This document shows, one piece after another, positions 566-43,458 of a stretch of 47,359 nucleotides of DNA. The notes beneath the pieces were generated by a model, which saw only the letters and a list, made by a program, of their open reading frames with translations, did no database searches and had not been told where the DNA came from. Origin of the DNA: Candidatus Woesearchaeota archaeon (GTDB lineage: Archaea; Nanobdellota; Nanobdellia; SCGC-AAA011-G17; DATDVL01); contig CAYIRJ010000004.1 of the NCBI GenBank assembly GCA_964365915.1, forward strand, positions 1 through 47,359. The letters are read 5' to 3'. Position 1 is the stretch's first letter. Each line of letters opens with the position of its first letter. Position numbers and translations under genes: made by a program.

Positions 566-567
566 TT

Positions 568-669
568 GGGCCGGTAGCTCAGCTTGGTAGAGCATTTGCC
601 TTTTATCAAGCAAGCATATCCTGCTTCAAAGCAAGCAAGTGGTCATGGGTTCAAATCCCATCCGGCCCG
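568..669 (+). tRNA. tRNA-Lys(UUU) with a 28-nt canonical 37/38 intron (606-633)
   Basis: Acceptor GGGCCGG (568-574) pairs with CCGGCCC (662-668); discriminator G. D-arm is GCTC-AGCTTGGTA-GAGC. Anticodon stem TTTGC (595-599) pairs with GCAAG (635-639); loop CT-TTT-A. The central BHB helix CTTT/AAAG is perfect. T-arm is ATGGG-TTCAAAT-CCCAT. It lies 2 nt after tRNA-Asp. Confidence 0.9.
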
Positions 670-684
670 TTCAACTCGAGAGCA

Positions 685-927
685 ATGGCTGAAGACACCT
701 TCGACATCCGCGAACACACCCTTGTGCCAAAACACGAGCGATTGAGTGAGGAGGCTGCGCAGCAGCTCTTGCAGAGTTATCACATTGAAAGAAAGCATCT
801 GCCAAAGATTTCTGTTAAGGATCCCTCTATCAAACATCTTGAACCCAAAGAAGGAGACATCATTAAAATCACAAGAATAAGCCCGACTGCGGGGAAAATA
901 TTTTTTTATCGTGCGGTGATGGAATGA
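685..927 (+). CDS. rpoH: DNA-directed RNA polymerase subunit H (Rpo5)
   Basis: 80 aa. HTLVPKHERLSEEAAQQLLQSY..LPKISVKDP..GDIIKITRISPTAGKIFFYRAV matches the RpoH/Rpb5 C-terminal pattern. ATGA overlap with rpoB''. Confidence 0.93.
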   Translation: MAEDTFDIREHTLVPKHERLSEEAAQQLLQSYHIERKHLPKISVKDPSIKHLEPKEGDIIKITRISPTAGKIFFYRAVME

Positions 928-4200: not shown

Positions 4201-4201
4201 C

Positions 4202-9398: not shown

Positions 9399-9649
9399 GT
9401 CTGGATGCACTGCGCAAAGCATTGAAGGAAAAAACCTTAGTCTATGGAAGTGATGCTACTTTGCGTAATCTCCGGCTGGGAAAAACGAAAACTATTTTCC
9501 TGGCGAAAAACTGCCCTGCTCTGGTGAAAGAAAGCATCCAAAGATACTCGCGGATAGCTGATGTCATGATTTATGCATTGGACGAGCCGAGCGACGAGCT
9601 TTCTCTTATCTGCAAGAAGAAATTCAATGTTGCGGTCGTGAGCTATTAA
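9395..9649 (+). CDS. rpl30e: 50S ribosomal protein L30e
   Basis: 84 aa, pattern ..LRNLRLGKTKTIFLAKNCP...Y..IADVMIYALDEPSDELSLICKKKFNVAVVSY. In the canonical position after rpoA''. Confidence 0.85.
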   Translation: MSLDALRKALKEKTLVYGSDATLRNLRLGKTKTIFLAKNCPALVKESIQRYSRIADVMIYALDEPSDELSLICKKKFNVAVVSY

Positions 9650-9652
9650 ACC

Positions 9653-10060
9653 ATGCAGTATGACCTCCAGTTGATTGGCTATCTCAATACTTTTGAATCC
9701 CTAACCCGATCGAAAGTGAAGGATGTGTTCTTTGATGCTACGGAGACCTTGGTGTTTGTGATGCAGCCAGGAGAGATGGGAAAAGCCATTGGCAAGAAAG
9801 GCAGCAATGTGAAACGCTTAGGAAACTTGCTGAAGAAGCGCATTCGCGTTATTGAATTTTCTTCTTCTGCCATTGATTTTGTTAAAAATTGCACGCTGCC
9901 CTTGATTCCGAAAAAGATGGTGCAGGAAGTGGATACTATCACTATCACCATGGAAAATACGCAACAGAAGGCTATGCTGCTGGGAAGGAACAAAAGCAAT
10001 TTCTTGAATATGCAGAAGATAGTGCAGAGATATTATCCGGTGCAGCTGAAAGTGTTATAG
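9653..10060 (+). CDS. nusA: archaeal NusA-like transcription termination/antitermination protein (KH domains)
   Basis: 135 aa. KH signature GKAIGKKGSNVKRL. In the canonical position after rpl30e. Confidence 0.85.
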   Translation: MQYDLQLIGYLNTFESLTRSKVKDVFFDATETLVFVMQPGEMGKAIGKKGSNVKRLGNLLKKRIRVIEFSSSAIDFVKNCTLPLIPKKMVQEVDTITITMENTQQKAMLLGRNKSNFLNMQKIVQRYYPVQLKVL

Positions 10061-28974: not shown

Positions 28975-30595
28975 TACTTTCTTCAAATGATTTATTTAAT
29001 TCTGGATATGTTTCAGCAATTGCACGCTTGGTTCCTACATAGATACGCTCTATTCTTTCTTTATCTTCAGGCTTGCGGCGCTCTGACAGTGCAGCAAGCT
29101 GACACAACGAGTTTTGAATGGTAATATTCTTCCACGTATCTATCCAAAGCTGATAATCGCGAGCAGGAAAATATTTTTTCCATTCGTTCCATGCATGCTG
29201 CAAGAGTTCATTACGCTGACCTGGACGGGCAGCCATGAATGCAGCAATGTCGTGCAAAGAATCGGAACGTCCACCGGTCTCCCAGTCAATGACATATCCC
29301 CCTTCCAAAACGTTTGATTCTGCAGCATCACGATGCGCAAGCACTTCAATCCCTAACAGATTACGAAGCTTCGCAAGATTTTCCAATTTTCTTTCGTACT
29401 GGTCCAAAAATTCCTGCTGCCTTGAATGCTGCAACCTTCTCCTGCACCTTCTCTTAAATTCATCTTGATAATCATGCACCGGCTCATCAGGAAAATGCTC
29501 TTGGTACGGGCCTGTTCCTGCTGCCATCAACTTGATGAGATGGGTAATGCCTTGCTTGAAATCATTTAAGTTATTTTCTGCACATTGGTTCAAAGTTTTT
29601 TTGTTTACTCGACGCGTTACAAGAATATACTCCTCCCCATATGGAAAACTGCTCAACGGATCTTCGCATGGCACCTGTTCAATATTCAGTACACCATAGC
29701 GTTGTATATATGCATCTCGCTGCAAACTGGCTATTGCTTCCTCTCGCTTCAATGCTTTTGGATCAATACTACGCTTGAAGAAATAACTATCTTTAGTGAA
29801 AAGATTCTCTTTGCATTCTAACAATACATGTGTCTTGCGGGATTGTGTAACTTTAGCTAATCGTGCAGGATTCTCTAAGATCTTTTCCAATGAAGAACGA
29901 AAATGCTGCTGTGCACGTTTGTATTCTCCCAGAGAACGACAAAAAATTCCTGCCAATAATTCAAGATTTACCGTGTTCTCAGGATATTTCTTAGGAAGCG
30001 ACTCGACTATTCGATGTGCAAGGTAATACCAACCCGATCTTTGATACATATCAAACCGCATAATATCCTTTCTTAATGTCCCACGGAAAGGAAATCCCAA
30101 CCATCCCAACAACGGCAGCATATATTCTGCAAATGTTTTAATATTATCATATTTTTTTTGGTTTTGGATCTTTTGTGCAGTATACAAAAAATATTGATCA
30201 TATCTCTGATTGAGGAACGCTTCCTTTGCACATAGGTCCAAATAAATAGTTGGATTATTTGTTTGTTCTTTTATTGTATCGATTTTTTCAAGGATTTTCT
30301 TTTTTTTCCCAAAAACAGTTTTCGCAAGAGGGAGTATTCCCGTTTTTGGTTCTGCACTTGTTAAGAAGCAAGATGTCATGAACGTCCCACCAAAAAAGCC
30401 CAAAAAAAACAAACGAAGATGATCTTCAATAGGTAGATCTATGTCTGATAACCAATATCGTATTCCTCCATAGATAACTGCGCCCCCTCCTATGGAAAGA
30501 CCATTCATTTCTTTTACCCATTTTTGATGCTTTCGTAATCTCTCCTCAAGCGTTTGTTCCTGATACATCAACTTTTTCTCGTTTTTGAAATTCAA
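28949..30595 (-). CDS. membrane-anchored protein with a C-terminal APH/choline-kinase-like phosphotransferase domain
   Basis: 548 aa. N-terminal hydrophobic helices (GLSIGGGAVIYGGIRYWL, FFLGFFGGTFMTSCFL) and C-terminal LAHRDAAESNVLEGGYVIDWETGG (HxDxxxxN, IDWE). Confidence 0.6.
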   Translation of the reverse strand: MNFKNEKKLMYQEQTLEERLRKHQKWVKEMNGLSIGGGAVIYGGIRYWLSDIDLPIEDHLRLFFLGFFGGTFMTSCFLTSAEPKTGILPLAKTVFGKKKKILEKIDTIKEQTNNPTIYLDLCAKEAFLNQRYDQYFLYTAQKIQNQKKYDNIKTFAEYMLPLLGWLGFPFRGTLRKDIMRFDMYQRSGWYYLAHRIVESLPKKYPENTVNLELLAGIFCRSLGEYKRAQQHFRSSLEKILENPARLAKVTQSRKTHVLLECKENLFTKDSYFFKRSIDPKALKREEAIASLQRDAYIQRYGVLNIEQVPCEDPLSSFPYGEEYILVTRRVNKKTLNQCAENNLNDFKQGITHLIKLMAAGTGPYQEHFPDEPVHDYQDEFKRRCRRRLQHSRQQEFLDQYERKLENLAKLRNLLGIEVLAHRDAAESNVLEGGYVIDWETGGRSDSLHDIAAFMAARPGQRNELLQHAWNEWKKYFPARDYQLWIDTWKNITIQNSLCQLAALSERRKPEDKERIERIYVGTKRAIAETYPELNKSFEESINPSVFLG

Positions 30596-30612
30596 AAATT
30601 TTTCGCCAAAAA

Positions 30613-30625
30613 GCTTATATAAACC
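30613..30625. promoter_or_regulatory. single palindromic TATA element (GCTTATATAAACC) between divergent genes
   Basis: Lies about 24 nt from the minus-strand ATG 30595 and about 26 nt from the plus-strand ATG 30645. Confidence 0.4.
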
Positions 30626-30644
30626 CTTTTTAACTGACTTGATT

Positions 30645-32486
30645 ATGGCGAAGAAAACACCTGACGCACCTTCTTCTCAACCTGATTTGGCTTCCAAGCT
30701 TCCAGAACTGCCTGATGCAGTGAAACAGCGCTTTGAAGAAGTCAAGAAAAAACTAGAAACTTTTAAAGATAAGACCTTAGAAAAATTTGACAAATATATT
30801 CTGGGCATTTCATTATTGCCGCCAGAGAAACAGCCTTTTGAAGGTCCCCCTCCTGCGGCTGCAACACCTCCTCCCGGACCTGAACAGAAAAGTGATGAAC
30901 TGAACATTCTTGTCTTGATAAATGATAGTGACAGTGAGAAAATGAGCAAGTTTGAGCTGCGGGAAAAAATGTTTACTGTTCTTGACAAGATTGCTGCGGA
31001 CATTGACAAAAGCTTCAAGCCTGAAGTGATGCTGCTGACAGAACTGCGCGAAAGTTTGTATGACGCGAAATATGAAATTTTGCGACTTATCGGCATGAGC
31101 GCTCCTATTTACGATCCCAAGGATCTGCTTGCTGCACTCAGGATCAGCGAAGTGCACAAAAGCATGGTCATCAAGAAATTTGAGAAATATGTGGTGAGCT
31201 ATGTTGCTGTGGGAAGCTTGTTTAGAGGAGATGCAAAGAGCAATGACATTGACGTTGCGGTGATCATTGATGATACTGATGTGAAAAAGATGAGCAGGGC
31301 AGAGCTGAGAGACAAGCTTGGAGCAATCATCAGAAGCATGGGATACGAGGCTTCTTCCATTACTGGAGTGAAAAAGAGCTTTCACATTCAAGTATACATC
31401 TTAACTGACTATTGGGAAAGCATCAAGGAAGCGAATCCCGTAATCTTTACGTTCTTGAGAGATGGCGTGCCGCTCTATGACCGAGGGACGTTCATGCCCT
31501 GGAAACTGCTGTTGGAACAGGGAAGAATTCGACCCAGCCCGGAAGCCATTGACTTGTTCATGGACATGGGAAAACGGCTGATTGAGAGGGCAAAAGGAAG
31601 GATGATTGGTATTGTTGCAGAAGATATTTACTATGCAGCCTTGAATCCGAGTCAGGCTGCGTTGATGCTGTATGGCATTCCTCCTCCTACGCCGAAGGAA
31701 ACGGTGAAACTGCTGGAGGATATTTTTGTGAAGAAAGAAAAATTACTGGAAATGAAGTATGTCAACACGCTTGAAAAGATCAGGAAGTGCTACAAGGACA
31801 TTGAGCATGGCACGATCAAGGACATTACGGGAAAAGAAATTGACCAGATGCTGCAGGAGACTGAGGATTATTTGAAGAGGATTGATCATTTGTTCAAGCA
31901 GATTGAGAAGCAGGCTGACAAGAAAGCAGTTGAGGAATTTTACAGCACTTTTGCTAAGGCGGTAAATGATGTTCTTGCTACTGAAAACATTATTGCCAAC
32001 AAAGACTTGGAAAAGGACTTCAAGCTGCTTGTCAAGAAAAACATCATTCCCAAGACCTTTGAAAAAAATCTTGAAGCTGTTGTTGGGCTGAAAAAGAAAA
32101 AATTAACGCGCTTTGAACAGAACAAAGTCATTCGTGAGAATACTTTTTTGATCCGCATCTTGTTTGAACATATCCAACGGAAAAAGGCGCTGGAGCTGGA
32201 ACGGGCAAAGATACGGGTGAAATACGGGGAGAAGTTTGCAGATGTTTACTTATTGGATAAGGTGGCTTATCTGGTGGAGGATGCGGATGGAACGGAAAAA
32301 CGCATCAACAAGGCTCTCTTGACTAAGGAAGGGGGATTAGAAAACATCCAGGAAAGTAACTTAAATGAACTGGAGACGGCATTGACTGCAGTGCCGATTC
32401 CCCAGAAGGTGTTCATCAAGGAAAAGATCTTTGAAGACTTAAGAAAATTGTATGGCGAAGATATTGAGATTGCTGTCGGACGATAA
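30645..32486 (+). CDS. large nucleotidyltransferase (Pol-beta superfamily) protein with a degenerate N-terminal NTase repeat and a helical C-terminal region
   Basis: GSLFRGDAKSNDIDVAVIIDD is the NTase G-S...D-x-D motif. An earlier degenerate copy reads LNILVLINDSDSEKMSKFELREKM. The segment ..LLEQGRIRPSPEAI..YGIPPPTPKE is paralogous to 42354-43166. The likely start is ATG 30645. Confidence 0.65.
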   Translation: MAKKTPDAPSSQPDLASKLPELPDAVKQRFEEVKKKLETFKDKTLEKFDKYILGISLLPPEKQPFEGPPPAAATPPPGPEQKSDELNILVLINDSDSEKMSKFELREKMFTVLDKIAADIDKSFKPEVMLLTELRESLYDAKYEILRLIGMSAPIYDPKDLLAALRISEVHKSMVIKKFEKYVVSYVAVGSLFRGDAKSNDIDVAVIIDDTDVKKMSRAELRDKLGAIIRSMGYEASSITGVKKSFHIQVYILTDYWESIKEANPVIFTFLRDGVPLYDRGTFMPWKLLLEQGRIRPSPEAIDLFMDMGKRLIERAKGRMIGIVAEDIYYAALNPSQAALMLYGIPPPTPKETVKLLEDIFVKKEKLLEMKYVNTLEKIRKCYKDIEHGTIKDITGKEIDQMLQETEDYLKRIDHLFKQIEKQADKKAVEEFYSTFAKAVNDVLATENIIANKDLEKDFKLLVKKNIIPKTFEKNLEAVVGLKKKKLTRFEQNKVIRENTFLIRILFEHIQRKKALELERAKIRVKYGEKFADVYLLDKVAYLVEDADGTEKRINKALLTKEGGLENIQESNLNELETALTAVPIPQKVFIKEKIFEDLRKLYGEDIEIAVGR

Positions 32487-32540
32487 CCTGCTTAGAAGTT
32501 ATCACCATCGCTTGCCTTCTTTCCCTTTTTTGTTCAGCGA

Positions 32541-32918
32541 TCACCACATAAATACTAAATCTTCTGCTGTTTTCCTTATCCGATCCATCAGCTCCCTTCG
32601 CTCTTTTCTCTCAGTAATAGGTTCAAAAAAGGAAACACGTGACTGATCATTTTTCCTCGGTTGATAAAACGGATAGGGTAATTTATTTTCCTTTTCCCTT
32701 GACCCTTTATAGTATCCTAAAATCACCCGGTAATTGGCATTGAGCATTATTGATTCTTTGGGATCCTTTCCTAACTCTCTTAAGAATGCTTCCTTTTGTG
32801 ATTGCGCAACATATTCTGGAAAACTTGAACCGGGAAGAGTTAGAACGATGACTTCTTTATTTTTATAAATTATTCTTTCTAAGTGTTCATCCTTTTTATG
32901 GCAGTAATGTATGATCAT
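32541..32918 (-). CDS. hypothetical protein (125 aa)
   Basis: Long ORF downstream of 32950-33705 on the same strand. No family recognised. Confidence 0.45.
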   Translation of the reverse strand: MIIHYCHKKDEHLERIIYKNKEVIVLTLPGSSFPEYVAQSQKEAFLRELGKDPKESIMLNANYRVILGYYKGSREKENKLPYPFYQPRKNDQSRVSFFEPITERKERRELMDRIRKTAEDLVFMW

Positions 32919-32949
32919 TTTTTTCTTGCTTTATCAAAAGGAAACATCT

Positions 32950-33705
32950 TCATTGCTTTACCACCTTGAGCAACCCTTCCATGCGCTCCACCAAACCCCC
33001 AACATTCGCTTGCGTATATGGCTCTTCATGATATCCAATAAGCAACTGCAATATTGAAGATTCCTTTTCAGCGAATGAAGTGATGTGGAATCTCTTTCCT
33101 TGGCTCCCTTCTATAAACACTTGAGGTGTGCCTGATCTGTAGGTCCAGTCATGAACATCCTCTCCATACGTGTAGGCATTCACTATTCTTCCTGGTAATT
33201 GCATGCAGAGAACTCCTTTGATCATACGTGTTATTGCTGCGGGGCGATCTGCTGCATATTTGATCGTTACATTCTCTCTGTGTTCATCTTTTGTATTATG
33301 AAGGTAGCGTTCTAATTCTTGCGCATTCTTAATTAGCACAGGTCGTTGTTTCGCCTCTTCTGCAACATTGGTAAGACGGTACTCCAGACCCAGCCATCCT
33401 CTCGCAACCTTGATGGGACTGCATTCCTGTATATAGAGGACACCATTAAAATGCTTAGTGAATGCTTCTTGAATGCATCTATCGGAAGGAATGGTGGGAC
33501 AGGGATAAAATATTTCTTGTATTACGCGCATCTCATGCAGTGCTGCGCCATATTGTCGATGTTGCCATACTACTCCTTGCATGTGCTGGAGCTGTTGTCC
33601 CAATATATTCATTCCCATGATCTTGATTGGTTCATTCCTTCTTTTAAATCTTTCTATTAATGTCACTTTAGAGTAATTATTATAATCTTCTCGTCTCTTG
33701 GGCAA
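32950..33705 (-). CDS. hypothetical protein (up to 251 aa; start uncertain)
   Basis: Long ORF. The codon at 33705 is TTG; the first in-frame ATG is at 33618. No family recognised. Confidence 0.5.
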   Translation of the reverse strand: MPKRREDYNNYSKVTLIERFKRRNEPIKIMGMNILGQQLQHMQGVVWQHRQYGAALHEMRVIQEIFYPCPTIPSDRCIQEAFTKHFNGVLYIQECSPIKVARGWLGLEYRLTNVAEEAKQRPVLIKNAQELERYLHNTKDEHRENVTIKYAADRPAAITRMIKGVLCMQLPGRIVNAYTYGEDVHDWTYRSGTPQVFIEGSQGKRFHITSFAEKESSILQLLIGYHEEPYTQANVGGLVERMEGLLKVVKQ

Positions 33706-33706
33706 A

Positions 33707-33718
33707 GTTTTTTAAACC
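33707..33718 (+). promoter_or_regulatory. TATA box (GTTTTTTAAACC) for rpl35ae
   Basis: Centre lies about 26 nt upstream of ATG 33738. Confidence 0.4.
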
Positions 33719-33737
33719 TTTTTTGACAGTTACGATT

Positions 33738-33995
33738 ATGGCACAAGCATTAATTACCCAGTTCCGTAGAGGAAAAACCACAAAACAAGAACGGCAAATG
33801 CTCATTTGTATTACCGGCGTAGATAAAAAGAAGGCTGTAGGTTACTTAGGTAAGCAAGTCGTCTGGAAAAGCACTGCAGGAAAAGAAATCAAGGGTATGA
33901 TCAGCAGAATCCATGGCAATAAGGGAGTGATGAGTGTTATTTTCGAGAAAGGCATGCCTGGCCAGGCCATTGGCACAGCAGTAGAGGTGCAATAA
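33738..33995 (+). CDS. rpl35ae: 50S ribosomal protein L35Ae (eL33)
   Basis: MAQALITQFRRGKTTKQERQMLI..GKQVVWKS.AGKEIKGMISRIHGNKGVMSVIFEKGMPGQAIG. The ORF-track start at 33723 is TTG. Confidence 0.85.
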   Translation: MAQALITQFRRGKTTKQERQMLICITGVDKKKAVGYLGKQVVWKSTAGKEIKGMISRIHGNKGVMSVIFEKGMPGQAIGTAVEVQ

Positions 33996-33996
33996 T

Positions 33997-34551
33997 ATGG
34001 CAGGATTACGACCCGCGCATTGCTATACTGAAATTAAGCGTGCGTACACCAGAAAAAGCAAGTTCAAAAGCAAGGGATATGTCAAGGCAGCACCGAATTC
34101 CAAGATTGTGAAATACTTCTTTGGCGATGTTACAAAAAATTTCAGCCATCAGCTGGATTTTGTTGCAATAGTTCCTGTGCAAATTCGGCATAATGCATTG
34201 GAAAGCGTGCGCCAGATTGTGAACAGGAGATTAAGCATTGATATTGGGAAGAATTACCGCCTAATTATTCGAGGGCATCCCCATCATGTGCTGCGCGAGC
34301 ATAAAATGTTAACGGGAGCGGGTGCAGACCGCATGAGCCCGGGAATGGCCCATGCCTTTGGAAGGCCTATTGGACTAGCAGTGCAAGCAAAGAGAGGCAA
34401 AGTGCTGATGAGTATATGGGTGGACAAATCTGATATTGAGAAAGCGAAATACGCGTACAGCAAGGCCTTTCCCCGATTGCCAGGACGATGGAATGTGGTT
34501 GTAACAGACATTGTAAAAATTCCTGAAATTACTTCCTTTCCAAGCAGATAA
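33997..34551 (+). CDS. rpl10e: 50S ribosomal protein L10e (uL16)
   Basis: MAGLRPAHCYTEIKRAYTRKSKFKSKGYVKAAPNSKI. Confidence 0.9.
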   Translation: MAGLRPAHCYTEIKRAYTRKSKFKSKGYVKAAPNSKIVKYFFGDVTKNFSHQLDFVAIVPVQIRHNALESVRQIVNRRLSIDIGKNYRLIIRGHPHHVLREHKMLTGAGADRMSPGMAHAFGRPIGLAVQAKRGKVLMSIWVDKSDIEKAKYAYSKAFPRLPGRWNVVVTDIVKIPEITSFPSR

Positions 34552-34630
34552 AAAGAATTCTGAATTTTTGATTATTTTCTACTCTTATTCTGTTGTCTTT
34601 AAGACCTATATCTTTTTATAGATAATTTTT

Positions 34631-36292
34631 ATGCGCGGGGGTATGTTGATTGCCTGGTTGAATGCTGCAACGCCTGAAACCTTTATTGGAGAGAAAGCAA
34701 GAACCCTTGCTGCATTAGCAACTCATGGGATCAATGTGCCGAAAGGATTTGTCATTACCCAAGAGGCATTTACCCACTTTCTTGCGGCAAACCAGATTGA
34801 CTTGCAGTTTCTTGAAAACTTGAACTTGGAGGATCAGGAACAAGTGGCGCATGCGGCAGCAGAACTCCAGCATCTTTTCCAGCAGGCCTATTTTCCAGAA
34901 ACACTACAGCAGGAAATTCTTTCAGCGTATGACCAGATGCTGGTGAGTGCTGAAGTGTATCATCATGTCAGCGCAGAAGCCTTGAACATTCTGAAGACAG
35001 GAAGAGACCTTCCTAAGGTCCTGATTCGGTCCAGCTGGAAGGAAGGAAAAGCGCTTTTTCATATTAAAGGGAAGGAAGCACTGCTGCAAGCCATCAAGGA
35101 AAGTTGGATGCTCCGCTTTCAGCCTGCACTATTGCAGCACCACATGCATGACATGGAAGTTATTGTACAAAAAATGCTTACTGTAGAACGCTCGGGTGTT
35201 GTTGTCCCTGATCAGCAGACTCACATTGAAGTAGTGTTAGGACTCTATGATGCGGTTACTCAGCAGCTTGTTCAGCCTGATGTGTATGCTCTTGATGAGC
35301 AGGGCACGTTTATTACCAAACAAGTGGTGAAGCAGGAATTCCTCTTCGTACGCGATTCCCAGGGAAGCTTGATCAAAAAGCATTTATTCTACCATGGGGA
35401 AAGCCAGAAACTCAGCGATTATGATGCACGCCAAATAGCAAAGCTCTACCAGAAAATTACGAGCATACTTGGATACATGTCTATTCTTGAATTTGCATTT
35501 GATGGTAATCAATTGTATGTACTGCAGGCTACCCAGCAGAAGCAGGAACCTGTCGTGGAACACGTAATGCAGCAAGCACAACCAGATATGCAAGCACAGG
35601 AACCGGAAACGCTTTCTTCAGAAGATCTGCATACTGTGACTGAACTGAAGGTGTTTCTTGAACAGAAGGACAGCTCTATTCCCTGTGATGGAGTGTTTAC
35701 TACTGCCTCTCTCCAAGATCTTCAAGAGATAGCCAAGGAATACCAACAAAATACGGTGTGGTATGCATTGCGCGATGCGCAGGATCTCCTGGACATTGCT
35801 AAGTTCCATGATGCAGGAGCGAACAATGTGGGGATTGCTATTTGTGGACTCACGGAAATTGAGCAGCTGCGGATGGTGAAGAACTCCCTGAAGAAGGCGG
35901 GGCTGGAACCTTTGGAGGAAATTGAAGTAGGATTAGTTATCGATTCCCCTCTTCTCCTCTATTTGCTTGATGACATTGACAGAGAAGGAATTGATTTCTT
36001 AGTAGTGGATTTTGCAACGCTGGCAGAGCGGAGTGCGGGAAAAGTCACGGACGGAAAAAACAAGGGATACTTGAAGTTACTGCATCATTTAGTGAAGGAA
36101 TGCAAATTGAGAAATATTGAAATTGGGGTTGCGGGGACCTTTGATGACGAACTGATTGACTTCTTTGTGAAGGCAGGATTTGACAGCTTGATATTGCCGA
36201 AGGCACAGCTGGAAAATGTGAAGAAAACAGTTGCGCGTGCGGAAAAAAGGCTGTTATTAAACGCTGCACGAAGAGACTTGAAAGAGATATGA
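34631..36292 (+). CDS. PEP synthase/PPDK-like protein without the phosphohistidine swivel domain
   Basis: 553 aa. The N-terminus GEKARTLAALATHGINVPKGFVITQEAF..VQKMLTVERSGVV is a PPDK_N-type ATP-grasp. The C-terminus ..IEVGLVIDSPLLLYLLDDIDREGIDFLVVDFATLAE is PEP-utilizer TIM-barrel-like. No GGxTSHAAI-type motif is present. Confidence 0.6.
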   Translation: MRGGMLIAWLNAATPETFIGEKARTLAALATHGINVPKGFVITQEAFTHFLAANQIDLQFLENLNLEDQEQVAHAAAELQHLFQQAYFPETLQQEILSAYDQMLVSAEVYHHVSAEALNILKTGRDLPKVLIRSSWKEGKALFHIKGKEALLQAIKESWMLRFQPALLQHHMHDMEVIVQKMLTVERSGVVVPDQQTHIEVVLGLYDAVTQQLVQPDVYALDEQGTFITKQVVKQEFLFVRDSQGSLIKKHLFYHGESQKLSDYDARQIAKLYQKITSILGYMSILEFAFDGNQLYVLQATQQKQEPVVEHVMQQAQPDMQAQEPETLSSEDLHTVTELKVFLEQKDSSIPCDGVFTTASLQDLQEIAKEYQQNTVWYALRDAQDLLDIAKFHDAGANNVGIAICGLTEIEQLRMVKNSLKKAGLEPLEEIEVGLVIDSPLLLYLLDDIDREGIDFLVVDFATLAERSAGKVTDGKNKGYLKLLHHLVKECKLRNIEIGVAGTFDDELIDFFVKAGFDSLILPKAQLENVKKTVARAEKRLLLNAARRDLKEI

Positions 36293-36580
36293 TTACTTCT
36301 TTGAATACTGCTCACTGGGATCGTAGGGAAGAGGATTCTCTGCATACGAGATGATCATTTCTTTCTTTCCCAGATTGTGGTACATCATGAAAAACTGCTC
36401 AAGAGGTGGAGGGGCAGGTAAAGACTTTTCTGGTTTGGGAGGAGCTACAGGCATTTGGCTCATGATCTTTCCTCTTTGATATTGTTCTTGTTTATCTGGT
36501 AATGTTTTTTTGGTCATGCATGCAACAGTTAATGCACTGAGTATGGCAAGCAATGATGAAGTACGTGCAAGCGATCTCAT
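36293..36580 (-). CDS. small putative lipoprotein (95 aa)
   Basis: Signal-like MRSLARTSSLLAILSALTVAC followed by a Pro-rich region. ATGA overlap with the upstream gene. Confidence 0.5.
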   Translation of the reverse strand: MRSLARTSSLLAILSALTVACMTKKTLPDKQEQYQRGKIMSQMPVAPPKPEKSLPAPPPLEQFFMMYHNLGKKEMIISYAENPLPYDPSEQYSKK

Positions 36581-37806
36581 TTTCTTCCTCCGCTTTTATC
36601 TAAGACTTCTGGTAGCATAGGAAGCGCTTCTGGAGTTAATCTCTCAGTTCCATACACCACTTCTCCTGTTATTTCTCCTTCTTTCCTGTTTATCTGGAGG
36701 CGAAGATGAGAACTTTTGAATTTTACTTTCCCGTTACCAATCTTTTCATCAATGTGCTCAGGCCGGACTAATGCATATGCTATCTGTGCATCCTCTGATG
36801 GCAATTTTATTCCGATGACTTCTCCTTCATTGTCTAAATTGAGAAAATCAAACTTCAGCACGGGTATTTCCTTGACGGTTCCTTCTGTGACTGTGATATC
36901 CCCCCAGTAATGTGCAGAAGTTCCCTTTGGGACAAAGAGGCTTGATTGCTTCGGCTGGACTGAGTTTTGACGCATCAATTCTTTCTTTTCTGCATCATAT
37001 TTTTGTTGCAAATCCAGAATGAGGCCATTGGTCCCTTTGATCATTTCCTTTGTGTTTCCCATGTCGTCAATTACTTTTTCTAGATTATTATTGACGGCAC
37101 CTAGGGAAGTCTCTACTCCTTCCACTCTTTCGTTCAATGTCCTTGTCATTCCTGCAGTCTTTTGCATATCTTGTGAGATCCTATTATAGGTTCCATCCTG
37201 TTTTCTTTGCATTCCGCGAAATTGGCGCTGCAATTCTCTTTTCTCTCTGCCTGCTGCATTCTTCACTTCATCCCGATATTGCTGCAATGTTTGCTGCTCT
37301 GCAGCATGCATCTGATCATGCACTTCCCATCCTTTTCTTGTTATGTAATATGCAGTAATACCCATAGCAAGTGCTGCAATGCCAATTCCTATTCCGAGAC
37401 CCCATCCTATTCTTTCTGGTAGTTGCGGTGGAACTTGTGGGACTGGGGCAGGTGGAGCTAGAGTTTGAGGAAGAACATAGATGGGTGGTTGATTTTTTCC
37501 TGCTTGCTTCACTTCTTCTCGTAACTGACCATAATTTTGCTGCGCTTCTGCCCGCAGAGCATCCACCTTTGCATGTAACCTTTCTTGATTCTTGTCTATT
37601 TTATCCATTCCTCTTAATCCTACTGCGGCAGCTTCTCCATATACTACTAATGTTTCTTTAGTGAGGTCATTCTCCTTGCGGTACTGTTCTTCAAATTTGT
37701 TTAGTGTGGTATTTACATTCTTCACATCTGTTGTTAAACCTGCAAGGGAGCATTCTATTCTAAGCCCTTGTTCGAGAATATCAGAGAAACTTCCGTCCGC
37801 AGTCAT
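36577..37806 (-). CDS. bitopic coiled-coil membrane protein (409 aa)
   Basis: Coiled-coil N-terminus, a Pro-rich linker, one TM helix (IGWGLGIGIGIAALAMGITAYYI), a second coiled coil and a beta-rich C-terminal domain. No family recognised. Confidence 0.55.
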   Translation of the reverse strand: MTADGSFSDILEQGLRIECSLAGLTTDVKNVNTTLNKFEEQYRKENDLTKETLVVYGEAAAVGLRGMDKIDKNQERLHAKVDALRAEAQQNYGQLREEVKQAGKNQPPIYVLPQTLAPPAPVPQVPPQLPERIGWGLGIGIGIAALAMGITAYYITRKGWEVHDQMHAAEQQTLQQYRDEVKNAAGREKRELQRQFRGMQRKQDGTYNRISQDMQKTAGMTRTLNERVEGVETSLGAVNNNLEKVIDDMGNTKEMIKGTNGLILDLQQKYDAEKKELMRQNSVQPKQSSLFVPKGTSAHYWGDITVTEGTVKEIPVLKFDFLNLDNEGEVIGIKLPSEDAQIAYALVRPEHIDEKIGNGKVKFKSSHLRLQINRKEGEITGEVVYGTERLTPEALPMLPEVLDKSGGRK

Positions 37807-37808
37807 AC

Positions 37809-38222
37809 TTATTTCCTTGTCCGAATATCAAACTTCTCTTTCCCACAGTCAACTTGTACCCGAGATTCTGGAGATTTTCGTTCTCCCATTGGGCCATATT
37901 GGGGATGGCTGGAAGCAGGTGCTGATGGCAAGGATTGCTGAATCATATGCTGCAATAATTGCTGGTACTGTTGCATGAGCATTTGTATTTGTACATCTCC
38001 CTGAGGCTGATATGTCGGTATAGGGATTATTGTCGAGGCATTTGCTGGCTGGTTCAGGACATAGCTTAGTCCAGATCCTTGAGGAACGCCTTGAAATACG
38101 AAAACTTGTGGTTCAGGTTTTTCACATTTCTTGCTACAATCTATGTTAATTCCTGGTGCAGTGCACGCGGCAAGCGCAATGCCTACTAAAGAACTTTCTG
38201 TTAATGCTTTGAACATCTTCAT
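37809..38222 (-). CDS. putative lipoprotein (137 aa from ATG 38222)
   Basis: MKMFKALTESSLVGIALAAC has a lipobox-like Cys, followed by a Gln/Pro-rich region. ATG 38222 lies 1 nt after the upstream stop (38224-38226). The ORF-track start is 38264. Confidence 0.5.
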   Translation of the reverse strand: MKMFKALTESSLVGIALAACTAPGINIDCSKKCEKPEPQVFVFQGVPQGSGLSYVLNQPANASTIIPIPTYQPQGDVQIQMLMQQYQQLLQHMIQQSLPSAPASSHPQYGPMGERKSPESRVQVDCGKEKFDIRTRK

Positions 38223-38223
38223 T

Positions 38224-38754
38224 TTATTTTCCTCCCCTGCTTTGAGCATACTGTTCCACTTCATTGATCAAACCCACAAGATCGTCTTGCGACTGGACCT
38301 CGATATCATTCCAAAATGCATAAACCCCAGTATCACACGGATCTTTTGACCTTCCGAAATAGAAATGCGGACGGACGGTAGTTTCTCCATCATGATATAC
38401 AACCCATGCACGATCTCCCTCTTTTTCTCCATAGAAATGTTCTCTGACTTTTCCACCTACTATTAGTGCACATCTTTCCGGCGCTGCCTTTGCACGCTCT
38501 TCTAAGTTCTTTTTTTGTGAAGAAGCAGCTTCCTTTGGCTTTTTTTCTGGCTCTTCTATCAACTCGTCTGAATCCTTTGGCATGGAATCTGGGTTTTCAA
38601 CAAGGTACTCTTTGCCATTTTTATCAGTTTTTTCTTCCCTTCTCACTGTTTCTTGTGGTACATAGGCTTTATTGCAGTGAGTAGCAACAAGAATTCCCGC
38701 TAATCCTGCTAAAGTAAGTGTACTGGTGATCGCAGTATATTTTGCTGTATTCAT
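38224..38754 (-). CDS. putative membrane-anchored/secreted protein (176 aa)
   Basis: N-terminal hydrophobic segment ITSTLTLAGLAGILVATHC, then a charged linker and a globular C-terminus. No family recognised. Confidence 0.5.
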   Translation of the reverse strand: MNTAKYTAITSTLTLAGLAGILVATHCNKAYVPQETVRREEKTDKNGKEYLVENPDSMPKDSDELIEEPEKKPKEAASSQKKNLEERAKAAPERCALIVGGKVREHFYGEKEGDRAWVVYHDGETTVRPHFYFGRSKDPCDTGVYAFWNDIEVQSQDDLVGLINEVEQYAQSRGGK

Positions 38755-38836
38755 TTTTCAAACCCCTCTTTTTTGCAAATGCTAAGATTATTTAAAGCTT
38801 TCTATTGTTCTTATCCTTAAGTGGTTACTTAGGTTG

Positions 38837-39703
38837 TTATGATTGGGTGGCTTTTGCTGTAAGTCCTAAGAAAGGTTCTACGCCAATGAATAGGTTAGGA
38901 TTTGCTCTTTGGGTTTCTACAAGATTGTCTAGAGACTGTAAACGCCGTATATCCATTGCTTTAGGATGTTGTTCGTAGAATTCTGCGGCTTTTGCATACT
39001 CTGCTGCCATTTCTGTTTCTTTTTTGGCCAAATTTAAACGTCCTTCTGCTTCTTCGGCTGCAAGAGTTGCTTCTGCTAATCTTGCCTCTAATTCAGGAGG
39101 GAGATCTATGCGACGGTATAATAGTGCATCTGCCGTTATCCCTAATTGTTCTATTGCGAATTTTTTTGTATCCTCAGAGAGGGTATCAATAGTCTTCTGT
39201 CCACCAACAGTTGCTTGCGCGAGTTCTCTCATTTCTTTTAACTTTTTAGAAAGCACGAATTGCCGCAAGTCTGCTTCTGCGCGATGAATGAGTAAAGTTT
39301 TATAATCAATCTTTTCTGATTCGCTATCATATGCGGCTTGTACAGTTTTTTTTGGATCAGTAATACGGTAATAAAGTGATGCTGACGCCGAAAGGACATC
39401 AATATAATCCCCAGTCTGCACTGTCTTTACCTCGATGTGTTCATTTCTTGGTCTTACGGTATTAATGACCATTCCGCTGCCCCATAATTTAGCTGGGCTA
39501 AAAATAATACGCCATCCTGCACCCTTTACTTCCTCACTTAATTTTCCCCTTCTCCAATAAATCCATTCTTGACCCGACCGTATTTGTAATAATTTAAGAA
39601 ATCTTGTTTCAATAATCATTTCTTCATGAGGACTTTCTAAATAGAACTTGTTTTGCGTATCTTCATCACTTGATTCTGAAAGTTCTGGCTCTTCTGTTGA
39701 CAT
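38837..39703 (-). CDS. SPFH/Band-7 (stomatin-prohibitin-like) domain protein with no N-terminal TM helix
   Basis: 288 aa. ..VKTVQTGDYIDVLSASASLYYRITDPKK, ..HRAEADLRQFV.., ..LGITADALLYRRIDLPPELEARLAEA.. and ..AMDIRRLQSLDNLV follow the SPFH pattern. The N-terminus is acidic, not hydrophobic. Confidence 0.72.
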   Translation of the reverse strand: MSTEEPELSESSDEDTQNKFYLESPHEEMIIETRFLKLLQIRSGQEWIYWRRGKLSEEVKGAGWRIIFSPAKLWGSGMVINTVRPRNEHIEVKTVQTGDYIDVLSASASLYYRITDPKKTVQAAYDSESEKIDYKTLLIHRAEADLRQFVLSKKLKEMRELAQATVGGQKTIDTLSEDTKKFAIEQLGITADALLYRRIDLPPELEARLAEATLAAEEAEGRLNLAKKETEMAAEYAKAAEFYEQHPKAMDIRRLQSLDNLVETQRANPNLFIGVEPFLGLTAKATQS

Positions 39704-39824
39704 ATTATTTTACAGTCATTTCCCCTTTAAAAATCTTTCTTTTGTCGTCTTTTTATGGTGATTACAAATGCATAAGGTTTATATAGGAGTTCAACTATTA
39801 TGATTACTATTAAGTAGTATACTT

Positions 39825-40145
39825 ATGGAGAGAAAAATGGATGTTAAAACAAAAGTAAAAGAAAAGGGAAAGAAACATTGGAAATACGCAGTGGGTTTAG
39901 CAATTGGAATTCCCTTAGGTACGTGTGCAGGATCTTGCGCGGGCGAACCTGATAAATATTATAGAATAGATGCAACAGGAGACGGCAAGCAGGATATTGT
40001 CCTAGAAGACAGGGGCTATTGTTTTGGTCTTTGGGGTGTTGATCATTATGTCCTTACTAGAGATGGAAGCAAGAACCGTATCTTGGATGGGAAAACTCTT
40101 ATTGAACGCATTGCTGAAAATGCGGAGAATGTTGAGGTAGAATAA
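39825..40145 (+). CDS. small membrane-anchored protein with one FG-GAP-type Ca-binding motif (106 aa)
   Basis: Hydrophobic AVGLAIGIPLGTCAGSC followed by DATGDGKQDIVL. Confidence 0.5.
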   Translation: MERKMDVKTKVKEKGKKHWKYAVGLAIGIPLGTCAGSCAGEPDKYYRIDATGDGKQDIVLEDRGYCFGLWGVDHYVLTRDGSKNRILDGKTLIERIAENAENVEVE

Positions 40146-40146
40146 T

Positions 40147-40269
40147 ATGAAATGCGCTAAATGTTATTACATCTGGGAAAGCAGAATCGAAGATCCGAAA
40201 AGCTGTCCACGCTGCAAAACGCGCTTGGATTATGGAAAAGCTTTAGAAGCTGTAATGATAGGAGCATAA
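40147..40269 (+). CDS. 40-aa zinc-ribbon mini-protein (absent from the ORF track)
   Basis: MKCAKCYYIWESRIEDPKSCPRCKTRLDYGKALEAVMIGA carries CxxC-x13-CxxC. Its ATG is 1 nt after the upstream TAA, and its TAA is 1 nt before the next ATG. Confidence 0.55.
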   Translation: MKCAKCYYIWESRIEDPKSCPRCKTRLDYGKALEAVMIGA

Positions 40270-40270
40270 T

Positions 40271-40582
40271 ATGAAAGAAGAAAATAGCAATACGGGAAGA
40301 ATCTTAGTACTTAGTTTTATTGGTGGAATCGCAGCTACGACCTGTGTTCGAACAGGTGATATCAAGGAGAGATTAAATGAAATAGATCAGAAACAGATAA
40401 GGTATATACAACATCAATTAGATGAATTAGACAAAAAAACGAAACAAGAAACCGTTACTTCAAGCAACGTTTTTGGTGATGAGAAACCAGAAACTTTTTA
40501 TGAAGTCAATGGCCAGCGCGCTTATCTTACCATTGACGGAAAACCTGTTGAAGAATATATAAGGGATATAAGGGAACGATAA
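40271..40582 (+). CDS. small N-terminally anchored protein (103 aa)
   Basis: TM-like ILVLSFIGGIAATTCV, a coiled segment and a C-terminal FYEVNGQRAYLTIDGKPVEEY. No family recognised. Confidence 0.5.
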   Translation: MKEENSNTGRILVLSFIGGIAATTCVRTGDIKERLNEIDQKQIRYIQHQLDELDKKTKQETVTSSNVFGDEKPETFYEVNGQRAYLTIDGKPVEEYIRDIRER

Positions 40583-40584
40583 CA

Positions 40585-41226
40585 ATGGCAGAAACAAAAG
40601 AAACAAAGAAACCTGTATACACGCTTGAAAGCGCTCGCAAGAGCTTGCCTTTTACTGGGTATGGCATTCATAGACATCTTGTTGAAACGTATTCTGGCAT
40701 GCTGAAAAAGACCAAGGGATCACTTTACATTGATCCTCAACAGATTGAAGCCTTGAATAACGTTCTTGCTGAGGAAACAGAAAAGGCAGTTTTACGTGAA
40801 GTGGGAGTCAAAGAACTTGCAACTCCTGCTAAAGGTTCAGAAGCTATGGGTGCTTTTTTTCAACGTGCCTTGGGCTTGAAAGAACTTACCCCAAAATTTG
40901 GAAAAGATGGCTCGCTTCTTGGTGTTTATGAGCAGATTAACCGATTTACTCAAGGATATCGCCAACGCGTACAAAGTACTATGGTTCAGGAAATGCCTGG
41001 AGATGATAGAAAATCCCTTGCTGGAGAAATTCAGAAATACGGGAATTTCAAACTCAAAGAAGAAGTTGTAAATACTCCTGAAGCACTCGCTGCAGCTTGG
41101 GCCACCTACGAGAATATTAAACAAAGTGAAGAGAAGGATGAAGATAAGAAGTTCGCATTACGAAAAAGTCTTGAAAAACTGATCAAAGAAGAGGAAGAAA
41201 AACAAGAAATGAGGAAAGCTGCTTAA
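40585..41226 (+). CDS. hypothetical soluble protein (213 aa)
   Basis: Long ORF in the operon with no signal sequence and a Lys/Glu-rich tail. No family recognised. Confidence 0.5.
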   Translation: MAETKETKKPVYTLESARKSLPFTGYGIHRHLVETYSGMLKKTKGSLYIDPQQIEALNNVLAEETEKAVLREVGVKELATPAKGSEAMGAFFQRALGLKELTPKFGKDGSLLGVYEQINRFTQGYRQRVQSTMVQEMPGDDRKSLAGEIQKYGNFKLKEEVVNTPEALAAAWATYENIKQSEEKDEDKKFALRKSLEKLIKEEEEKQEMRKAA

Positions 41227-41237
41227 GGAGAAAAACC

Positions 41238-41534
41238 ATGAAAACATTACCAAAACTCGGATTGCTGGGATTATTGGGTGGTGGTTTAATGGGTTGTGGA
41301 GATGTAGGATATCAACCTGCTAATGAACCTCTCGAAAGAGATACTTCCCAGGATACTGTTCCTTTCTTTAACCAGTTTGGGGTGCTCTATCCTGTAGAGT
41401 CTACTTTTGGAATTGACTATCCAGTTAATTCCCTTGCTACTGGTGATTTTGATGGTGATGGGGATTTAGATCTTGCTGTGGGAAGTGAAGATGCGATAAT
41501 TATTTACGAGAACAAAATTCCTCAGAAGAAATAA
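41238..41534 (+). CDS. small lipoprotein with one FG-GAP repeat (98 aa)
   Basis: MKTLPKLGLLGLLGGGLMGC has a lipobox-like Cys; ATGDFDGDGDLDLAVG follows. GGAG lies upstream of the ATG. Confidence 0.6.
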   Translation: MKTLPKLGLLGLLGGGLMGCGDVGYQPANEPLERDTSQDTVPFFNQFGVLYPVESTFGIDYPVNSLATGDFDGDGDLDLAVGSEDAIIIYENKIPQKK

Positions 41535-41535
41535 C

Positions 41536-41952
41536 ATGAAACTGTTGCAAACGCTGGGACTCATTGGTGCAGGATTAGCATCTTTGCTCCAGGGATGCAG
41601 TAAAACCCCTTCCGTTTCTATCAATAACAATGTCGTGCCGAAAGAAGGGGACAGGGCTATTCTGCAGTTACCCAGTCTGATTAAACCTCCTTACTACTAT
41701 GCCTATATCTGGGATTTAAATGGTGATGGGAACATTGATGAAGCAGTCCATGTCTATGACGTTGATCATCTCAACATAGGTGTAGATCTCAACAAATTGG
41801 CAGGAATTCTTAACACATTAAATAAAGAACAATGGGCTCATTTCCGAGCTGAGGATATTCAACAACCTTATTTTGTTACTCCTCAAACGCGAATCATGTC
41901 TGAAGACCAAAGAACATTTTTCACGCAATCCTATCAACGTTTGCAAAGATAA
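41536..41952 (+). CDS. small lipoprotein with one DxNxDGxID Ca-binding motif (138 aa)
   Basis: MKLLQTLGLIGAGLASLLQGC is followed later by WDLNGDGNIDEAV. Confidence 0.55.
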   Translation: MKLLQTLGLIGAGLASLLQGCSKTPSVSINNNVVPKEGDRAILQLPSLIKPPYYYAYIWDLNGDGNIDEAVHVYDVDHLNIGVDLNKLAGILNTLNKEQWAHFRAEDIQQPYFVTPQTRIMSEDQRTFFTQSYQRLQR

Positions 41953-41953
41953 C

Positions 41954-42352
41954 ATGACTCATCCTACAAAACCTTCAGTTGAATTTAAGGAAGAACCCTT
42001 ACGCTATCTTTGTAATGAATCCTTCTTTGGATTACGAAAACTTTTTCCTGAACATTGGAACGATGGAAATATTGCATATATTGAAGGACTGATTGGAGGA
42101 TACTTTTTGGCAGATGCAGGCACAAGCCTTTATGGAGAAGCTGCTGTTCTTCCTAATATTAATCAACCTACGTTTTCACGCGATACAGAATTGCAAGGAA
42201 TAGTTAAAGGATCATTACTTGTCGAAGGCATTTACAGTTTAATTGCACCTAAGAAATTAAAACAATTCTGGAATGAAAATCCCATTTATTCCCGTGGCGC
42301 ACTCGGAACCATGATTGGCGCATCAGCACGAGGCATTCAACAACTTTTGTAA
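41954..42352 (+). CDS. hypothetical protein (132 aa from ATG 41954)
   Basis: ATG 41954 lies 1 nt after the upstream TAA. The ORF-track start at 41873 overlaps the previous gene. Confidence 0.5.
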   Translation: MTHPTKPSVEFKEEPLRYLCNESFFGLRKLFPEHWNDGNIAYIEGLIGGYFLADAGTSLYGEAAVLPNINQPTFSRDTELQGIVKGSLLVEGIYSLIAPKKLKQFWNENPIYSRGALGTMIGASARGIQQLL

Positions 42353-42353
42353 T

Positions 42354-43166
42354 TCACATTCCCTTTTTCTTCTCAATATATTCCTTCATTGCATGTACAA
42401 AATCCTCTGCCTTTTCCTTTAATTCATCGTAGTGCTTTCCAGAAATTTCCTTGATGTCGCGATGTACAATGTGCTTGAATGTTAGATACAGTTCTTGCAT
42501 GATCTTGGCATGCTTATGCTTAATATGGGTTCCTGCTAGTTTTCTTTCCACCATTTCAGCAACATGGCTCGGAGTGGGGGGAATCTCGCCTGCAGCCATT
42601 AAAGCAGCATGTGCAGCGTCAATAGCAGCCCAATACAAATCAATGGTTGCTCCGAGCAGGTGATCCCGCGACCTGGCAAGAGAAGCAGGAGCCAAGGTAA
42701 AATAGGTCCAGACTGATTCGTCTGTTGGTCTGATCCTTCCTTGTTCCAGCAATGCCTGCAGAGGATCAAAGAAGCCTGTGTCAATGACTGCAATGCCATA
42801 GCGCATGACATTAATGGCAACAGGATCGCCTGCACGCACATATTCCCACCAGGCAGTCAACTTCATGGACTGGACATGCAATCTCCTTGGATCGACATCA
42901 TTCATTGCCCTTGCCACGATAACCCGGTAAGCCTCGACCAATTCTTTATTGAACTGAAAACGGAGATCATCTACGATAATAAGAATGTCCAGATCGCGCT
43001 TCTTTCCTCCCGGATCCTTGACTGCAGAACCAAACAAGACCAAGGCGCGGATAAAATTGCCAAATTCCTTGTAAAGAATCTTAGCGAATTTCTGCGTGGT
43101 TTCAATATCCTCTGCAAGATAACGGGAGAAATTCCTCTGCTCACGCTGCGGAATAGAAAACTTCAC
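42354..43166 (-). CDS. nucleotidyltransferase (Pol-beta superfamily) fused to a helical HEPN-like C-terminal domain
   Basis: 270 aa. LVLFGSAVKDPGGKKRDLDILIIVDD is the NTase motif. ..LLEQGRIRPTDES..AGEIPPTPSH is paralogous to 30645-32486. Confidence 0.7.
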   Translation of the reverse strand: MKFSIPQREQRNFSRYLAEDIETTQKFAKILYKEFGNFIRALVLFGSAVKDPGGKKRDLDILIIVDDLRFQFNKELVEAYRVIVARAMNDVDPRRLHVQSMKLTAWWEYVRAGDPVAINVMRYGIAVIDTGFFDPLQALLEQGRIRPTDESVWTYFTLAPASLARSRDHLLGATIDLYWAAIDAAHAALMAAGEIPPTPSHVAEMVERKLAGTHIKHKHAKIMQELYLTFKHIVHRDIKEISGKHYDELKEKAEDFVHAMKEYIEKKKGM

Positions 43167-43296: not shown

Positions 43297-43458
43297 TTAA
43301 TGATCAGCTTGTTCTTTACTTAACATTCCTGCAAATTTTAGAATACTTCCTTTATTTGTAATCCTCTTAATAACACCACTAAAGCTTTCATTTTCTCTTT
43401 TCTTGCTTGCAAGACGTTTGTATGCTTCTTCTGTGATCTTTATTTTTTTGGTAGCCAT
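43297..43458 (-). CDS. 53-aa COG1753/DUF217-type putative antitoxin (absent from the ORF track)
   Basis: MATKKIKITEEAYKRLASKKRENESFSGVIKRITNKGSILKFAGMLSKEQADH matches the archaeal VapB-like K-I-x-I-x-E-E-x-Y..L...K...ESFS.VI.R pattern. Confidence 0.6.
   Translation of the reverse strand: MATKKIKITEEAYKRLASKKRENESFSGVIKRITNKGSILKFAGMLSKEQADH

Follow-up and report, generated by a model that had tools for sequence, protein, structure and literature searches.

A packed operon of seven small genes, g1 to g7, occupies positions 39825–42352 of a 47,359-nucleotide stretch from a Candidatus Woesearchaeota archaeon (GenBank assembly GCA_964365915.1, contig CAYIRJ010000004.1; the whole stretch is called the window), and three of its products, g1, g5 and g6, each carry one loop of the form D-x-[DNT]-G-D-G-x-x-D. 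We consider it slightly better than an even bet (probability about 0.55) that the locus is a fast-evolving, strain-variable island encoding independent small surface proteins with calcium-stabilised loops, which are not the subunits of one propeller. An earlier note, made from the sequence alone, had put forward as one hypothesis a propeller-like or calcium-dependent adhesive assembly of separate subunits. A hetero-oligomeric propeller is unlikely and finds no support, because g1 and g6 do not match the FG-GAP models, the predicted fold of g6 is not a blade and the genes are not co-conserved.

Three proteins of one operon carry a single calcium-type loop

The operon comprises seven co-directional plus-strand open reading frames (ORFs), listed here with the evidence for each:

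39825..40145, plus strand: g1, 106 residues (ORF, motif scan, hydropathy)
40147..40269, plus strand: g2, 40 residues, zinc ribbon (weak Zn-ribbon Pfam matches, conservation)
40271..40582, plus strand: g3, 103 residues, N-terminal transmembrane segment (hydropathy, coding-frame score)
40585..41226, plus strand: g4, 213 residues (ORF, homologue search)
41238..41534, plus strand: g5, 98 residues, lipobox and one FG-GAP repeat (Pfam FG-GAP)
41536..41952, plus strand: g6, 138 residues, lipobox (HMMER family, AlphaFold2)
41954..42352, plus strand: g7, 132 residues from its ATG, in agreement with the NCBI call (ORF, coding-frame score)

The junctions measure 1–11 nt. Five of them consist of TAA, one or two nucleotides and ATG; the g4–g5 gap of 11 nt includes GGAG, and a single nucleotide separates the stop codons of g7 and a convergent nucleotidyltransferase (NT) gene. 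The start of g1 is ambiguous (39825 or 39837; NCBI calls a protein of 102 residues). All seven ORFs listed in the earlier note are present, and each is positive only in its own frame by a codon-usage log-odds score trained on the window's housekeeping genes. Its description of them all as envelope proteins holds for part of the set. Hydropathy finds N-terminal hydrophobic segments in g1, g3, g5 and g6 only, and because g2, g4 and g7 lack one, the operon encodes a mixed set.

A six-frame translation of the window contains just three matches to D-x-[DNT]-G-D-G-x-x-D, all of them in this operon and exactly as previously quoted: DATGDGKQD in g1 (39969–39995), DFDGDGDLD in g5 (41445–41471) and DLNGDGNID in g6 (41713–41739). 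Against 0.0004 matches expected from composition and none in 300 shuffles, the occurrence is non-random. Each of the three proteins has exactly one copy, on a mature chain of about 65–117 residues. These figures bear on the reading that some small ORFs, g3 and g7 above all, are spurious and that the clustering of motifs is incidental. For g3 there is no homologue in any fetched locus, including the closest relative, none was found for g7, and both form singleton clusters; against this, the own-frame coding signal in seven of seven ORFs, the uniform stop–start coupling, the excess of motifs and the homologues of g1, g2, g4, g5 and g6 make spurious genes very improbable.

A nine-residue loop with Asp at position 9 is the form known from integrin and FG-GAP blades, and the integrin alpha propeller has about seven such blades in tandem. 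Neither g1, g5 nor g6 has the several tandem blades in one chain that mark an FG-GAP/VCBS propeller; highly repetitive VCBS-like sequences have a median of six blades (PMC9218822). The 12-residue loop of EF-hands and dockerins was considered and rejected: in place of an acidic residue, position 12 has Leu in g1 and Val in both g5 and g6, and strands stand on both sides of the loop in the g5 and g6 models. The linear motif D-x-[DN]-x-D-G is matched exactly by g5 (DFDGDG), g6 (DLNGDG) and the g1 orthologue of the nearest relative (DLDGDG), whereas g1 itself reads DATGDG, with Thr at position 3.

When the three families were compared by hhalign, their likeness was limited to the loop, over 16–32 columns, with probabilities of 6% for g1 against g5, 84% for g1 against g6 and 73% for g5 against g6. 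Since profile alignment is confined to the loop and g5 alone passes the FG-GAP model, g1, g5 and g6 are best assigned to three separate families that have a loop in common but no domain. At least twelve unrelated folds or families contain Dx[DN]xDG calcium-binding loops (Rigden et al. 2011, PMC3123361); hence three unrelated small proteins can share the motif, whose presence by itself is not enough to place g6 in FG-GAP.

Outside its loop, g1 has a Lys-rich N-terminus, one hydrophobic segment with a conserved LGTCAG[ST]C[AS]G and a C-terminal domain of about 65 residues that holds the motif. It has no Pfam match at E ≤ 10. Its orthologue in the nearest relative is 45% identical, with the loop DLDGDGSSD in a canonical DLDGDGSSDIVV, and stays below threshold for both FG-GAP_3 (19.1 bits, cut-off 26.9) and FG-GAP (15.6 bits, cut-off 22.1). 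A word-indexed homologue search with g1 returned one near-identical match, and we class g1 as a putative protein of the signal-anchor type, from a family seen only in sister genomes.

g5 is a candidate one-blade FG-GAP lipoprotein

In the hidden Markov model comparison with Pfam, g5 passes FG-GAP (PF01839; 29.0 bits, cut-off 22.1) and falls under the cut-off of FG-GAP_3 (PF13517; 23.5 bits against 26.9), and g1 and g6 have no match; the FG-GAP/VCBS assignment of the earlier note thus survives for g5 alone. Like FG-GAP/VCBS repeats of the integrin alpha type, g5 has the pattern ...FG...GDFDGDGDLDLAVG... and a nine-residue DxDxDGxxD loop between two strands. Unlike them, it has one repeat per chain in place of several tandem blades, and the repeat is fused to a lipobox signal peptide only. 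The lipobox reads LMGC, with the cysteine at position 20, and is followed by a mature chain of about 78 residues (FGVLYPV...STFG...SLATGDFDGDGDLDLAVGS..AIIIYENKIPQK), about one blade's worth of strands. A profile of g5 and its homologue P0004 matches six successive blades of the FG-GAP propeller in PDB 9oee. The AlphaFold2 model of g5, built on a two-sequence alignment, has four strands and a predicted local distance difference test (pLDDT) score of only 48.9, too uncertain to use.

The word-indexed search with g5 gave two matches besides itself, one of which, P0004, is a real homologue. This protein of 114 residues is 41% identical to g5, with which it shares the single repeat and the ...ENKIPQK tail, and its lipobox reads FSGC. 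Its gene, in another archaeon, lies directly 3′ of one for a 575-residue acidic surface protein that combines a signal peptide with a transmembrane anchor at the C-terminus.

These features raise an alternative to independent proteins, namely that g5 alone as a 5–8-mer, or g5 together with g1, forms a lipid-tethered FG-GAP propeller with one blade per chain. Its four or so strands make up one blade's worth of a true FG-GAP repeat, P0004 keeps the one-blade architecture, the g1 orthologue is weakly FG-GAP-like, and a low-confidence monomer model is what one would expect of a blade that needs partners, although an alignment of just two sequences may be reason enough for the low pLDDT. Oligomeric propellers can also be formed by engineered fragments of one or a few blades (Afanasieva et al. 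2019, PMC6805158). The concept is the same, short chains each supplying blades to a ring, but those fragments are engineered and of WD40 type (WRAP), whereas assembly of the present proteins is hypothetical and the three are not homologous blades. The predicted fold of g6, globular in its own right and free of FG-GAP signal, speaks against a split propeller, as do the nearest relative, which keeps g1 but lacks g5, and the occurrence of the g5 homologue without g1 or g6. We regard this arrangement as unlikely. The narrower proposal that g5 and P0004 are natural one-blade FG-GAP lipoproteins assembling on the membrane as a homo-oligomeric, Ca2+-dependent beta-propeller appears quite unlikely as well; if true, the ancestral single-blade state that has been proposed for propellers, which are thought to originate from single blades (PMC9218822), would have a living example.

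g6 belongs to an unnamed family of putative lipoproteins with a predicted fold of its own

An exhaustive HMMER search over 1.84 billion representatives found four full-length relatives of g6 (P0011, P0019, P0020 and P0026; 134–145 residues) and P0017, in which the module is duplicated in tandem over 252 residues. In every one of them, a short hydrophobic signal at the N-terminus ends in Cys. The lipobox of g6 is LQGC, with the cysteine at position 21; three of the four full-length relatives fit the consensus (P0011 LSGC, P0019 LSSC, P0020 IASC), and in P0026 (GLSAC) the Leu is one residue off register. Invariant in the family are D60, G63, D64, D68, E69, A70, W100, H102, R119, M121 and R126. 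No Pfam family covers g6 and its relatives: g6 has no match at E ≤ 10, five members lack an FG-GAP match, and the sub-threshold matches of the family are EF-hand_5, in two homologues, and the lipoprotein-site model LPAM_1 only. Profile matches to the PDB are not significant (first blade of CRTAC1, E = 0.15; a hemolysin-related propeller, E = 0.09) and serve as leads only.

The AlphaFold2 model of g6, from a five-sequence alignment, has a pLDDT of 76.6 and a predicted template-modelling score of 0.69. Strands at residues 40–45 and 54–59 lead into the loop (60–68), which is followed by a strand (69–74), a helix (85–92), two further strands (100–104 and 118–120) and a closing helix (123–137). Structural comparison of this model gave no propeller match, nor any other. 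The predicted fold therefore differs from an FG-GAP blade in containing helices: g6 is modelled as a compact alpha/beta domain, not as a blade. As modelled, it would place the Dx[DN]xDG loop in a new, stand-alone fold, additional to those described.

Other matches in the g6 search are giant repeat proteins, mostly with PKD repeats, in which each PKD-type repeat carries Y-x-WDLDGDGxxD[DE]A. The motif context of g6, YIWDLNGDGNIDEA, recurs in each such repeat, and g6 aligns to about the first 50 positions of the repeat; a home-made profile of the PKD-type repeat aligns to residues 28–77 of g6 from the window and to the motif only in other family members. Unlike a PKD domain, g6 has a C-terminal half with helices and conserved W-x-H and TRxM..xR elements, and neither g6 nor its family has a Pfam PKD or PKD_4 match. 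We rejected the large proteins (PKD, TPR and others) as homologues, their scores being sums of many weak motif matches, and likewise two metagenome loci (L023 and L024), which are bacterial PKD-like or weak matches.

The loop proteins are not conserved together

The NT gene served as the synteny anchor for finding related loci. The operon is bordered by the following features:

38837..39703, minus strand: SPFH/Band_7 gene, divergent from the operon (PF01145, E = 8.8e-15)
39704..39824, no strand: intergenic (putative promoter) region of 121 nt between SPFH and g1 (sequence reading and TATA scan)
42354..43166, minus strand: NT, 270 residues, convergent with the operon, a conserved flank (NTP_transf_2 and Polbeta matches)

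The nearest relative (GCA_053530935.1; loci L001 and L002) keeps g1, g2 and g4 and lacks g3, g5, g6 and g7. In L001 the flanking NT and AP-endonuclease-like proteins are 86–89% identical to those of the window (NT itself 89%), and between them identity falls to 50% for SPFH, 45% for g1 and 58% for g4, with 82% for g2; two unrelated ORFs of 120 and 91 residues stand where g5–g7 are. The contrast between the flanks and SPFH, g1 and g4, together with the absence of g3 and the replacement of g5–g7, is why we call the island variable. In 13 more distant Woesearchaeota or Nanoarchaeia loci, whose NT is 48–65% identical, the g2 zinc ribbon alone is recognisable, in 3 of the 13.

Homologues of g5 and g6 elsewhere stand alone, no other operon gene being found near them. 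The g6 homologues lie beside genes for ribosomal protein L1 and a PIN protein, beside MazE, and, in a third setting, with TrmB on one side and a tRNA-abutting integrase on the other. The co-conservation expected of the subunits of a hetero-oligomer is therefore not seen, and the operon, taken in the earlier note as one unit, is not inherited as one. The element that carries P0019, a g6-family lipoprotein, spans positions 1–9952 of locus L021; it is an archaeal integrated element with an intron-containing tRNA and a tyrosine integrase at its borders and includes a VirB4/TraC-like ATPase, a type IV secretion system pilin and TrmB.

This distribution can also be read as that of an accessory cassette derived from a mobile element, comprising g5–g7 and possibly g3, whose lipoproteins would serve in exclusion or immunity or in recognition of host or partner cells, not in housekeeping envelope structure. 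The same four genes are those missing or replaced in the closest relative, P0019 lies in an element with the VirB4/TraC-like ATPase and pilin, two other g6 homologues neighbour PIN or MazE genes, and a second contig of the same assembly ends within g4. In the window, however, the flanks of the operon are free of integrase and mobility genes and of repeats, DNA repeats inside it amount to shared motif codons only, and operon codon usage is host-like. A viral-contig scan found nothing of the g6 family, other g6 homologues adjoin ordinary chromosomal genes, and searches of PHROG, NCBIfam, PADLOC and PDB sequences with the operon proteins gave nothing useful: there was no PADLOC match and one PHROG match, for g3, that is marginal (E = 0.002). 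A mobile origin appears rather unlikely.

The second contig (L003) is a copy of window positions 30578–40961 at 99.6% identity. Almost all of the differences fall at 30.97–31.12 kb, within a 633-residue gene, where L003 has a run of N; the duplicate stretch points to strain heterogeneity or to redundancy in the assembly.

In a distant Woesearchaeota genome (L006, 9742–10065), a different transmembrane-anchored protein of 107 residues, with the motif DENGDGSPD, adjoins NT. Small calcium-loop membrane proteins may recur at this variable position.

The remaining genes of the operon

The best-conserved gene of the operon is g2. Its product has four cysteines (CxxC-x15-CPRC), weak Zn-ribbon Pfam matches and no hydrophobic anchor. 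Beyond the nearest relative it is 51–57% identical in three distant Woesearchaeota (L007, L010 and L013), always adjoining NT, and its substitutions are concentrated at codon position 3. The exact g2 sequence was not found in the public protein collection, and the gene is unannotated in the public record. Small proteins encoded 3′ of g2 in the three distant loci were rejected as relatives of g4 (hhalign probability 0.3%).

A member of the conserved g1–g2–g4 core, g4 has no hydrophobic segment and a Lys/Glu-rich C-terminus. Among 5.8 billion clusters it has two homologues, a truncated copy from the same assembly and a protein 58% identical, and searches of Pfam, PHROG, NCBIfam, PADLOC and PDB gave no match. 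Both g2 and g4 are likely to be cytoplasmic. A TATA-like AATATATAAGG lies at window positions 40556–40563, inside the end of g3 and about 29 nt upstream of the g4 ATG, and could give a separate leaderless g4 transcript. In g3 itself, an N-terminal transmembrane segment (hydropathy peak 1.82, residues 10–27) precedes a charged stretch, and g7 has Gly-rich amphipathic stretches and no strong transmembrane segment.

Genomic setting and divergent neighbours

Split RNA polymerase subunits, elongation factors EF-2 and EF-1alpha and intron-containing tRNAs mark the window as a chromosomal contig from a DPANN archaeon (Nanoarchaeota/Woesearchaeota-like); ribosomal proteins and glycosyltransferases are encoded as well. 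The RNA polymerase A″ gene (6792–9398) contains an intein with a LAGLIDADG homing-endonuclease domain. Two adjacent tRNAs at 469–565 and 568–669 (97 and 102 nt) are detected by Rfam and missed by ARAGORN, and are presumably intron-containing.

The divergent gene is a true Band_7 match, as the earlier note had it, and it is syntenic and 50% identical in both L001 and L002, with the same divergent arrangement in the closest relative. No gene of the locus has an NfeD match in Pfam, and the SPFH–NfeD pairing is accordingly not found here. The 121-nt gap between SPFH and g1 contains a TATA-like TTTATATA at 39778–39785, and positions 39758–39830 are 80% identical in nucleotide sequence to L001, while the g1 protein itself is only 45% identical. 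The proposed divergent layout is supported, and the gap probably acts as a promoter region.

On the far side of SPFH lies a further group of genes:

36293..38754, minus strand: four genes 3′ of SPFH, encoding 176, 151, 409 and 95 residues (hydropathy, ORFs)

Each of the four has a hydrophobic segment, N-terminal or internal. They comprise two lipobox proteins (LAAC and TVAC), one signal-anchored protein and a coiled-coil transmembrane protein of 409 residues. They are barely kept in L001, even though its flanks are 86–89% identical; the sole match, for the 151-residue protein, is weak (31%).

Beyond NT, a gene for a VapB-type antitoxin (43297–43458) lies in the gap of about 320 nt that separates NT from the AP-endonuclease-like gene, with no PIN gene adjacent. 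The same gap measures just 47 nt in L001, so the VapB stretch of the window looks inserted.

A conserved core with a partly replaceable set of probable surface proteins

Taken as a strain-variable island of independent proteins, the locus would consist of a conserved core (SPFH, the shared promoter, g1, g2 and g4) that carries a partly replaceable set of small surface proteins. The seven genes appear to form one translationally coupled operon, probably co-transcribed from the conserved promoter shared with the divergent SPFH gene. Its products would be mixed: g2 and g4 probably in the cytoplasm, g1 held in the membrane by its signal-anchor, g3 by its transmembrane segment and g5 and g6 by predicted lipidation at the lipobox. 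On this reading g1, g5 and g6 would each expose one nine-residue Dx[DNT]xDGxxD loop on a tiny, probably extracellular, domain. The loop probably binds one Ca2+ ion, which would either make the mini-domain rigid or provide a calcium-dependent, possibly adhesive, contact with a surface ligand. The calcium-type loop thus probably serves a structural purpose in very small secreted domains, or else as such a contact site; its metal binding, the lipid anchors and the outward topology are predictions from protein sequence.

Lipoproteins are predicted to be prevalent in DPANN archaea, the lipobox consensus being [L/V/I][A/S/T/V/I][G/A/S]C (PMC12462473). Like these lipoproteins, g5, g6, the g6 homologues and the two lipobox proteins on the SPFH side begin with a short charged segment, followed by a hydrophobic stretch and a Cys near position 20.

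Several points weigh against independent surface proteins. The gravest is that three calcium-loop proteins are encoded in one operon of 2.5 kb, compared with just one further match in about 200 kb of related genomes, a clustering that suggests some functional link which independence leaves unexplained. The co-conservation test rests on few genomes, with only one close relative among them. The structural model of g5 is of low confidence, and a lone blade would normally need partners. Finally, position −2 of the lipobox is Met in g5 (LMGC) and Gln in g6 (LQGC), unlike the strict consensus.

DPANN archaea are mostly tiny symbionts whose surface proteins presumably mediate host contact, and almost all of these proteins are unannotated. 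If no product of the operon assembles or binds specifically, the locus is one more variable patch of hypothetical surface genes. The locus combines known elements (the calcium loop, the FG-GAP repeat and the lipobox) in unusual minimal architectures and adds one unnamed family: g6 represents a group of putative lipoproteins of about 140 residues with a conserved calcium loop and no structural relative detected, and g2 is a conserved yet unannotated zinc-ribbon gene of 40 residues. The putative minimal one-blade FG-GAP lipoprotein, g5, bears on whether single blades can work or assemble in nature.

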